Assembly: GCF_055900595.2 (NCBI RefSeq)
Contig: NZ_CM148325.1
Reading direction: 5' to 3' (one strand)
DNA length: 64,000 bases
The first letter of the stretch is position 1; every line of letters begins with the position of its first letter. A model generated the notes under the pieces. It ran no database searches and had not been told where the DNA came from. It worked only from the letters and a program-made list of their open reading frames with translations. Positions 26,659-29,222 of the stretch are shown in pieces. Made by a program: the position numbers and the translations under genes.

Positions 26659-27128
26659 AACTCTCTCCTGTATTCAATTCCCGCCAAGGATAGCAGGAAA
26701 CCTGATGCTTTATTAGTAGCCGCGTGCGCGGTCGACTTGCCCGCAGACCCTCTCCCCTTTTTCGAGCTGGGCAATGGTGCGAGAAATGTACTCCACAGCT
26801 TCAGCGGGACGGGTAATCGCGGCGACATGTGGTGTTATCGCCACGCGTGGATGTTGCCAGAGCGGACTTTCCGGCGGTAAGGGTTCGCGATTAAAAACAT
26901 CCAGCATTGCACCTTTAACTTTGCCGCTATCCAGCGCCGCGAGCAGGTCATCTTCCACGACATGAACACCACGCGCCAGGTTGAGGAGATACGCGCCATC
27001 CGGTAATTTTTCGATTAATTGTTGATTAATAATGCCGACGGTTTCAGGGGTATTCGGTAACAAATTAATCAATACCCGGCATTGGCTCAGAAATGCAGAA
27101 AGTTCTTCCCGTCCGGCAAAGCTTTGCA

Positions 27129-27137
27129 CGCCAGGCC
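27129..27137. repeat. 9-bp target-site duplication CGCCAGGCC (left copy)
   Basis: Identical 9-mer directly flanks both IS10 termini. Confidence 0.92.
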
Positions 27138-27182
27138 CTGATGAATCCCCTAATGATTTTTATCAAAATCATTAAGTTAAGG

Positions 27183-27252
27183 TAGATACACATCTTGTCA
27201 TATGATCAAATGGTTTCGCCAAAAATCAATAATCAGACAACAAAATGTGCGA
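27183..27252 (-). ncRNA. IS10 antisense RNA-OUT (position inferred from the canonical IS10 map, not independently delimited)
   Basis: By established knowledge IS10 pOUT produces a ~69-nt antisense RNA overlapping the 5-prime end of the transposase mRNA near the outside end; coordinates are approximate. Confidence 0.4.
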
Positions 27253-28453
27253 ACTCGATATTTTACACGACTCTCTTTACCAATTCTGCCCCGAATTACA
27301 CTTAAAACGACTCAACAGCTTAACGTTGGCTTGCCACGCCTTACTTGACTGTAAAACTCTCACTCTTACCGAACTTGGCCGTAACCTGCCAACCAAAGCG
27401 AGAACAAAACATAACATCAAACGAATCGACCGATTGTTAGGTAATCGTCACCTCCACAAAGAGCGACTCGCTGTATACCGTTGGCATGCTAGCTTTATCT
27501 GTTCGGGCAATACGATGCCCATTGTACTTGTTGACTGGTCTGATATCCGTGAGCAAAAACGGCTTATGGTATTGCGAGCTTCAGTCGCACTACACGGTCG
27601 TTCTGTTACTCTTTATGAGAAAGCGTTCCCGCTTTCAGAGCAATGTTCAAAGAAAGCTCATGACCAATTTCTAGCCGACCTTGCGAGCATTCTACCGAGT
27701 AACACCACACCGCTCATTGTCAGTGATGCTGGCTTTAAAGTGCCATGGTATAAATCCGTTGAGAAGCTGGGTTGGTACTGGTTAAGTCGAGTAAGAGGAA
27801 AAGTACAATATGCAGACCTAGGAGCGGAAAACTGGAAACCTATCAGCAACTTACATGATATGTCATCTAGTCACTCAAAGACTTTAGGCTATAAGAGGCT
27901 GACTAAAAGCAATCCAATCTCATGCCAAATTCTATTGTATAAATCTCGCTCTAAAGGCCGAAAAAATCAGCGCTCGACACGGACTCATTGTCACCACCCG
28001 TCACCTAAAATCTACTCAGCGTCGGCAAAGGAGCCATGGATTCTAGCAACTAACTTACCTGTTGAAATTCGAACACCCAAACAACTTGTTAATATCTATT
28101 CGAAGCGAATGCAGATTGAAGAAACCTTCCGAGACTTGAAAAGTCCTGCCTACGGACTAGGCCTACGCCATAGCCGAACGAGCAGCTCAGAGCGTTTTGA
28201 TATCATGCTGCTAATCGCCCTGATGCTTCAACTAACATGTTGGCTTGCGGGCGTTCATGCTCAGAAACAAGGTTGGGACAAGCACTTCCAGGCTAACACA
28301 GTCAGAAATCGAAACGTACTCTCAACAGTTCGCTTAGGCATGGAAGTTTTGCGGCATTCTGGCTACACAATAACAAGGGAAGACTCACTCGTGGCTGCAA
28401 CCCTGCTTACTCAAAATCTATTCACACATGGTTACGTTTTGGGGAAATTATGA
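27245..28453 (+). CDS. IS10 transposase
   Basis: 402-aa [52 protein letters not shown]... recognised as IS10/Tn10 transposase; start 107 bp inside the outside end as in IS10. Confidence 0.96.
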
Positions 28454-28466
28454 GGGGATCTCTCAG

Positions 28467-28475
28467 CGCCAGGCC
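28467..28475. repeat. 9-bp target-site duplication CGCCAGGCC (right copy)
   Basis: Identical 9-mer directly flanks both IS10 termini. Confidence 0.92.
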
Positions 28476-29222
28476 ACGATTTACGGGTTCTACTCCAGCA
28501 ACGCAGCGGGAAGCGCCAGGTTTGCAGACTCTGGGCAACTTTACCGCCCAGTACGCCTGCGCCCAAAATGCCGATGGTAAAATCTTCCCGATGATATTCA
28601 GGCAGCGGTTGCCAATGTGAATTATTTTGCTGGGTGCGATAATCGTCAAAACGTCGAAACCAATGCAGCACCTGACTAACGGCATATTCCTGCATTTGCT
28701 CGCCCATACCGGTATCTTCCAGGCGAAAAAGTGGAACAGAAGGTTTCAGCATATCAGGGTGAGCCTGTAACTTGCTCAAAATAGAATCAACACCCGCCCC
28801 GAGTGCAAACACCGCTTTAAGATCGCGCCCAGCCAGCATTTCAACAGGAGGATGCCAGACTAAAGCATAATCGGCTGATTCATTGTCTCCGCTTTTCCAT
28901 GCTCTGACTCTTGCCTGAGGAATCGCTTTGCGCAGTGCCTCAATCCACCATTGGGTATCGAACGTTGGGTGATAAAAGATGATGTCCATACTGACTCCCG
29001 AAAAGCGTTGCGCGAAATTTATTCGCACTTATCGTTATGATCTACAAAGGCCACCAGCATAACAAATCCGTGGTCGGTGGCAAAAAAAGCAGATTTCGCT
29101 TATTAAAACTGCATATTGATTGAAGTTTGAATAAACGCGCGATTTTTTTAAAAAGTTTGTTGACCTCAGGTCATGATTTCCCTAAATTAGCGCCCGTTCC
29201 AGCAAGACAGGAACGACAATTT

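Follow-up and report, generated by a model that had tools for sequence, protein, structure and literature searches.

Insertion sequence IS10 supplies the two arms of transposon Tn10, IS10-Left and IS10-Right. The characterised and fully active element is IS10-Right; the transposase of IS10-Left is described as inactive or poorly active, so that a solitary IS10-Left (IS10L) "should be inactive" (PMC11148124), and IS10L has also been recovered repeatedly as a new plasmid insertion in cultures of NEB5alpha (PMC11481808). The antisense transcript RNA-OUT normally terminates at IS10 nt 47, and Dam has a role in regulating the element (PMC5006887), while some transcripts from the promoter pOUT run on into adjacent genes (about 10% of lacUV5; PMC9330008, citing Simons 1983). 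Additional outward promoters, pIII and OUTIIp, are located toward the inside end, at IS nt 1000-1230 (PMC11481808). The DNA of the source strain described here is one 64-kb stretch (the window, whose coordinates are used throughout), within which a complete IS10 of the IS10-Left sequence type divides ghrA. With a probability of roughly 93%, this arrangement is best read as a recent cut-and-paste transposition of an IS10-Left-type element into the chromosomal ghrA gene of E. coli; any consequence for expression of the neighbouring ycdX, ycdY and ycdZ genes we infer from the layout of the locus.

Every hallmark of IS10 open to verification from sequence is present in this copy, including its length, both ends, the target duplication, the transposase, RNA-OUT and the Dam sites (Table 1). 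The outside end begins CTGATGAATCCCC and the inside end finishes GGGGATCTCTCAG, with the terminal repeat at the inside end beginning CTGAGAGATCCCC when read inward. These 23-bp terminal inverted repeats are imperfect, agreeing at 17 of 23 positions, and GATC occurs within the element at IS nt 67 and 1320 only. The 9-mer CGCCAGGCC abuts each end and is found elsewhere in the window just once, on the reverse strand at 49892. The transposase cut this symmetric target, CGCCAGGCC, with a 9-bp stagger, and subsequent gap repair copied it to both sides, a step that is recorded in the sequence itself. There is a single IS10 outside end of this type in the 64 kb, and neither tet genes nor a second IS10 were found there, making the element a solo insertion sequence and not a Tn10 arm.

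The transposase is encoded by an uninterrupted open reading frame that matches the IS4 family transposase model NCBIfam NF033591 (402 bits, cutoff 152) and Pfam DDE_Tnp_1 (E 2e-24). Residues D97, D161 and E292 of the DDE triad are all present, in the numbering of the Tn10 transposase. Searching the solved structures by sequence turned up none for this protein.

The insertion breaks ghrA after nt 523, inside codon 175. When the element and one 9-mer are removed, joining 26713..27137 to 28476..28989, the result is an open reading frame of 312 codons plus a stop that scores 683 bits against the GhrA equivalog model NCBIfam NF012013 (cutoff 403, covering 1-312 of 312) and matches solved structures of E. 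coli GhrA end to end (PDB 6p35, E 3e-212). A 2262-bp reconstruction of the empty site, which includes part of ycdX, ghrA, serX and part of dgcT, aligns to the chromosome of E. coli AST85 at 100% identity in one ungapped piece. A first-pass annotation of this DNA had proposed a full-length 1329-bp IS10 with both terminal repeats, an intact 402-aa transposase, identical 9-mers at the two ends and co-linear ghrA halves summing to 312 codons, and the observations above bear out each of these, with the alignment to the uninterrupted AST85 allele confirming that the insertion was precise; its limits for the locus, 26713-28989, are indeed the outer limits of the split gene.

Translation from the native ghrA start would now yield only 174 residues followed by an 11-aa tail encoded by the insertion sequence, with the NAD-binding/catalytic domain divided. 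As this predicted product retains just part of the Pfam 2-Hacid_dh_C domain (residues 105-277), which IS10 splits, the GhrA enzyme is almost certainly lost. The best sigma-70-like match of the region, TTGACG-17-AATAAT (10/12), is located in the 5' half of ghrA at 28621..28649 on the minus strand, and any internal promoter there, being upstream of the insertion point, would likewise be separated from ycdX by the insertion sequence.

Table 1. Coordinates of the IS10 insertion in ghrA and of the downstream genes
Feature	Position	Strand	Remarks
Complete IS10, IS10-Left allele	27138..28466	+	1329 bp; outside end 27138, inside end 28466
Outside-end terminal inverted repeat, 23 bp	27138..27160	+	same sequence in IS10-Left and IS10-Right
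Inside-end terminal inverted repeat, 23 bp	28444..28466	-	contains Dam site GATC 28457..28460
Target-site duplication, left copy CGCCAGGCC, 9 bp	27129..27137	.	abuts IS10 outside end
Target-site duplication, right copy CGCCAGGCC, 9 bp	28467..28475	.	abuts IS10 inside end
Dam site GATC	27204..27207	.	IS10 nt 67-70, pIN -10 region
IS10 transposase gene, 402 aa, intact	27245..28453	+	uninterrupted open reading frame
RNA-OUT antisense RNA, IS10 nt 115 to 46	27183..27252	-	heads to the outside end and ghrA-3'/ycdX
pOUT promoter region	27253..27300	-	directly upstream of RNA-OUT 5' end; TAAAAT ending 7 nt before start
ghrA 5' fragment, nt 1-523 (codons 1-174 + 1 nt)	28467..28989	-	read into the insertion sequence: GhrA(1-174) + 11-aa tail
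ghrA 3' fragment, duplicated nt 515-523, codons 175-312, stop	26713..27137	-	downstream of IS10 outside end
ycdX, PHP-family zinc phosphatase	25921..26658	-	first intact gene downstream of pOUT
ycdY, TorD/DmsD-family chaperone	25343..25897	-	
ycdZ, DUF1097 membrane protein	24750..25241	-	

Comparison with both IS10 arms of the Tn10 carried by plasmid R100 identified the allele. One of these (NC_002134.1 36132..37460) is identical to the window element at 1329 of 1329 positions, and according to the R100 annotation it adjoins the gltS-like gene jemA, the other copy abutting tetC/tetD. On the standard Tn10 map the jemA side is IS10-Left and the tetD side IS10-Right, an assignment that agrees with the RNA-IN sequence given for IS10-Right in published work. 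Fifteen nucleotides distinguish the window copy from IS10-Right (24, 25, 27, 47, 83, 107, 410, 425, 903, 1249, 1268, 1271, 1272, 1281 and 1300), along with four residues of the transposase (I266V, S381L, T389A and V398A), while nt 108-409, including pOUT, are the same in both. The sequence thus places the element with the IS10-Left type of Tn10. The Prokaryotic Genome Annotation Pipeline (PGAP) labels the matching R100 copy "IS4-like element ISVsa5 family".

How widely each type occurs in E. coli was examined in a collection comprising 5,426 complete genomes of the species, using IS nt 1245-1305, a diagnostic segment 61 nt long in which the two types have no 28-nt word in common. The IS10-Left type was found at 1,949 places, 1,680 of them chromosomal, in 602 genomes and at up to 44 places per genome, and for the IS10-Right type the counts were 2,994 places and 774 genomes. 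Many different genes, among them feaR, cirA, tssG, glcB, narU and ftnA, hold full-length copies that match the window element at 99.9% identity or more. Judged from the number of genomes and the variety of genes occupied, IS10-Left-type elements clearly spread in nature. Their abundance is near that of the IS10-Right type and mostly chromosomal, which is at odds with the textbook view of a defective arm.

There are several indications that the ghrA insertion is recent. Over the 25-kb flank to the right of the element, AST85 and a few other human and dog isolates show ~100% identity, and only 10 of the 5,426 genomes are at least 99% identical there. The junction between ghrA and the IS10 outside end was absent from every genome of the collection (left-junction query, at least 80% coverage), and a degenerate junction pattern searched in both orientations gave 0 matches in JGI metagenome contigs. 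The closest relatives yield 2 places that match, both with IS10 included in the query and with it left out, an equality which implies that their chromosomes lack IS10. Since relatives ~100% identical over 25 kb keep the empty site and carry no chromosomal IS10, the insertion reads as precise, as recent and as confined to the source strain, and the element probably came from outside the chromosome. One apparent match, a full-coverage hit in strain AJ6, was rejected as the same insertion, its IS10 being located 1.7 kb away in ycdU and merged with the ghrA region into one place.

The surroundings of the insertion vary somewhat among relatives. In several strains that are otherwise ~99.9% identical, E200086 and its relatives, the match to the 2262-bp empty-site query is broken into two pieces and extends over 2443 bp, so these strains appear to carry near serX an extra segment of ~181 bp that both the window and AST85 lack. 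The IS3-ymdE-ycdU segment that extends from serX to dgcT in K-12-like strains (AJ6, ATCC 43886, F41) is missing from the window at 29308..29413, as it is in the AST85 lineage, and dgcT here comes almost immediately after serX.

The choice of site within ghrA can be examined in light of the known target preference of IS10. CGCCAGGCC fully fits the relaxed consensus NPuCNNNGPyN and agrees at 4 of the 6 specified positions with the consensus NGCTNAGCN (classical core GCTNAGC), both quoted here from PMC4574204. The ghrA gene contains no perfect GCTNAGC and three GCYNRGC sites, with 15 perfect GCTNAGC in the whole window and GCYNRGC-class sites at a density of ~1.4 per kb. One strain of the collection, and only one, carries IS10 at this same place. 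E. coli B1172 (NZ_CP120549.1, a human isolate of Czech origin) has an IS10 of 1329 bp that differs by 1 nt from the window copy (3601..4929 of the extracted locus). This insertion shares with ours the gene, the position and the 9-bp target CGCCAGGCC, and is in the opposite orientation, with its inside end toward ycdX. Compared with the window, the ghrA flanks in B1172 show differences at 9/425 and 17/523 nt (97-98% identity). By these flank differences the B1172 insertion is an independent event in another lineage that re-used the target.

Such re-use might be taken as a sign of selection, with loss of GhrA or control of ycdXYZ by an IS10 promoter being beneficial and accounting for the arrival of two lineages at one site. 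Two independent insertions at an identical 9-bp ghrA target would fit this view, as would the link of ycdX and ycdY to swarming (PMC4464133) and further independent IS10 insertions in the serX-dgcT-pgaA neighbourhood. That said, the two ghrA elements are oppositely oriented and pOUT is aimed at ycdX in just one of them, ghrA insertions are known from 2 strains only (B1172 and the source strain), and GhrA function is generally held to be backed up by GhrB. Moreover, IS10 has a strong sequence preference, and given the density of GCYNRGC sites and a total of ~4,900 IS10 places across the collection, chance alone should now and then lead to a site being used twice. Selection is therefore unlikely as the explanation, and the opposite orientation in B1172 points to target preference, and not to a benefit tied to pOUT, as the reason for the location. 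A more elaborate version is somewhat less probable still; it would make CGCCAGGCC a recurrent IS10 hot spot whose insertions are kept because they detach swarming-related ycdXYZ from the promoter of ghrA and place these genes under constitutive IS10 outward promoters, pOUT in our strain and pIII/OUTIIp in B1172. Were this the case, IS10-Left would have to be regarded, given its many places and genomes, as an autonomously active and widely proliferating insertion sequence in wild E. coli.

The wider neighbourhood of serX, dgcT and pgaA seems to have been hit repeatedly by IS10. Additional independent copies within a few kb occur in AJ6 (5527-6855), ATCC 43886 (~4270-5600), F41 (~4570-5895) and HBUT-L (~3600-4930; all positions in the extracted loci). 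These occupy ycdU, the intergenic region of dgcT and pgaA, the pgaA 5' end and the interior of dgcT, and they encode both IS10-Left- and IS10-Right-type transposases.

A different sort of explanation is that ghrA is intact in nature and that the insertion arose as an artefact, either by a hop of IS10 into cloned DNA as a library was grown in an IS10-bearing K-12 host or by misplacement during assembly. IS10, including IS10L, is present in DH10B, JM109 and NEB5alpha and does jump into cloned DNA (PMC4574204, PMC11148124, PMC11481808), and the site is empty in all close relatives. Against this stand the natural isolate B1172, with IS10 at exactly the same site, and the frequency of IS10-Left-type elements in the chromosomes of complete E. 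coli genomes; nor would a faulty assembly produce 9-bp repeats that match perfectly at the two junctions. An artefact is thus quite improbable. Least credible of all is an old, decaying and immobile relic, a notion that could appeal to the reported functional defect of the IS10-Left allele and was rejected because the element has 0 differences from Tn10 IS10-Left in 1329 bp, retains an intact reading frame, intact ends and perfect duplications, and is absent from relatives ~100% identical over 25 kb.

If recent transposition is the correct account, attention turns to the genes beyond the insertion. The first-pass annotation had the outside end facing the 3' part of ghrA and pOUT co-directional with ycdX-ycdY-ycdZ, and both claims stand, the former by the positions of the ends and the latter because RNA-OUT and ycdXYZ are all on the minus strand. 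RNA-OUT, which overlaps the transposase start near the outside end, matches Rfam RF00240 over the full model (97.3 bits, gathering score 41, E 5e-20) and folds as a stem-loop (-21.3 kcal/mol, z -4.0). The position of pOUT is deduced from the RNA-OUT start together with the identity of nt 108-409 to IS10-Right, where pOUT was defined; a simple sigma-70 scan called neither the pOUT nor the pIN hexamers. The ycdX ATG is 594 nt from the RNA-OUT start, along a path that crosses 425 nt of ghrA remnant, and ghrA and ycdX are separated by a gap of 54 nt. No terminator-like hairpin was found on the minus strand from 27252 to 26658.

The layout suggests how expression of these genes may have changed. 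A "ycdWXYZ operon" has been named (PMC7046640), and since ghrA and ycdXYZ are thereby regarded as one operon, polarity would be expected first, with transcription from the ghrA promoter mostly lost within the insertion sequence. Constitutive pOUT, making the 69-nt RNA-OUT, would be directed through the ghrA remnant at ycdX-ycdY-ycdZ, and minor read-through past the RNA-OUT 3' end could provide low constitutive expression. The first-order effect on ycdXYZ is thus probably removal of the native promoter input, with partial and weak replacement by pOUT. In the 3' remnant the only ghrA-frame start codon past the last stop is GTG at 27129, for which reason the remnant is probably poorly translated. 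The inside-end promoters pIII and OUTIIp of this copy aim away from ycdX, antisense through the 5' half of ghrA toward serX.

Within ycdX there is also an exact copy, in antisense (26266..26282, plus strand), of the intragenic sigma-54 motif ATGGCTTATTATATGCA, which was assigned to ycdX in a genome-wide sigma-54 study (PMC4591121). This motif is directed at ghrA and serX, and IS10 now lies between it and serX. Elsewhere in the window, gathering-level Rfam matches to Ysr251, two naRNA4 repeats, ES056 and ES036 (37609..37802, plus; 38945..39122, minus; 22194..22285, plus; 55037..55079, plus) are ordinary E. coli small-RNA/REP-type features unrelated to IS10.

Two points weigh against the account given so far. 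The transcript that would reach ycdX includes a stretch at ~26888-26760 with C in excess of G, a possible Rho substrate if untranslated, and Rho acting in the mostly untranslated ghrA remnant may lower read-through further. The second concerns the element itself, for the reported poor activity of the IS10-Left allele means that this copy may have been mobilized in trans, or that it may move only poorly on its own. The first-pass annotation considered the insertion recent and possibly still mobile. The first half of that claim is upheld by the relatives with an empty site; the second is plausible, as the parts required for renewed movement are all retained (both ends, the IHF-site region, the Dam sites and the DDE triad), and yet makes a weaker case than it would for IS10-Right, because the copy is of the IS10-Left allele.

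Taken as a whole, the locus is a known element in a textbook event, in which IS10 inserts into a chromosomal gene, duplicates 9 bp of target and turns an outward promoter toward the neighbours, and established knowledge of IS10 is unchanged. For the source strain it means that ghrA is a pseudogene made by a mobile element and that ycdXYZ may be mis-regulated, and in annotation the element should be named IS10-Left, not generic IS10 or "ISVsa5". The points of interest are modest and amount to the IS10-Left identity, the exact empty-site relative and the opposite-orientation B1172 insertion at CGCCAGGCC. With these, the locus offers a clean natural example of a precise insertion with its empty-site allele in a near-identical relative, an example of one 9-bp target re-used by independent, oppositely oriented IS10 insertions, and an example of solo spread of the IS10-Left type, the textbook defective arm of Tn10.

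Comparison with the described systems shows how close the resemblance is. IS10-Left on R100 has the same ends, RNA-OUT, pIN/pOUT region, Dam sites and 402-aa transposase (WP_001352368.1 type) as the window element, differing in that it is an arm of Tn10, whereas the window copy is a solo chromosomal insertion sequence in ghrA. IS10-Right shares the length, terminal repeats, 9-bp duplication, DDE triad and RNA-OUT fold; at nt 107, however, a G-U replaces a G-C pair in the RNA-OUT of the window copy, making this predicted fold 2.6 kcal/mol less stable and so weaker than the IS10-Right version. The outward promoter is aimed downstream here just as it is in the known cases of pOUT-activated neighbours, for instance acrEF in Salmonella and the insertions at the cat promoter of pSU vectors. 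There, activation has been shown and was selected for, whereas at the ghrA locus any activation would have to reach ycdX, the first intact gene, across 594 nt and past a gene remnant.

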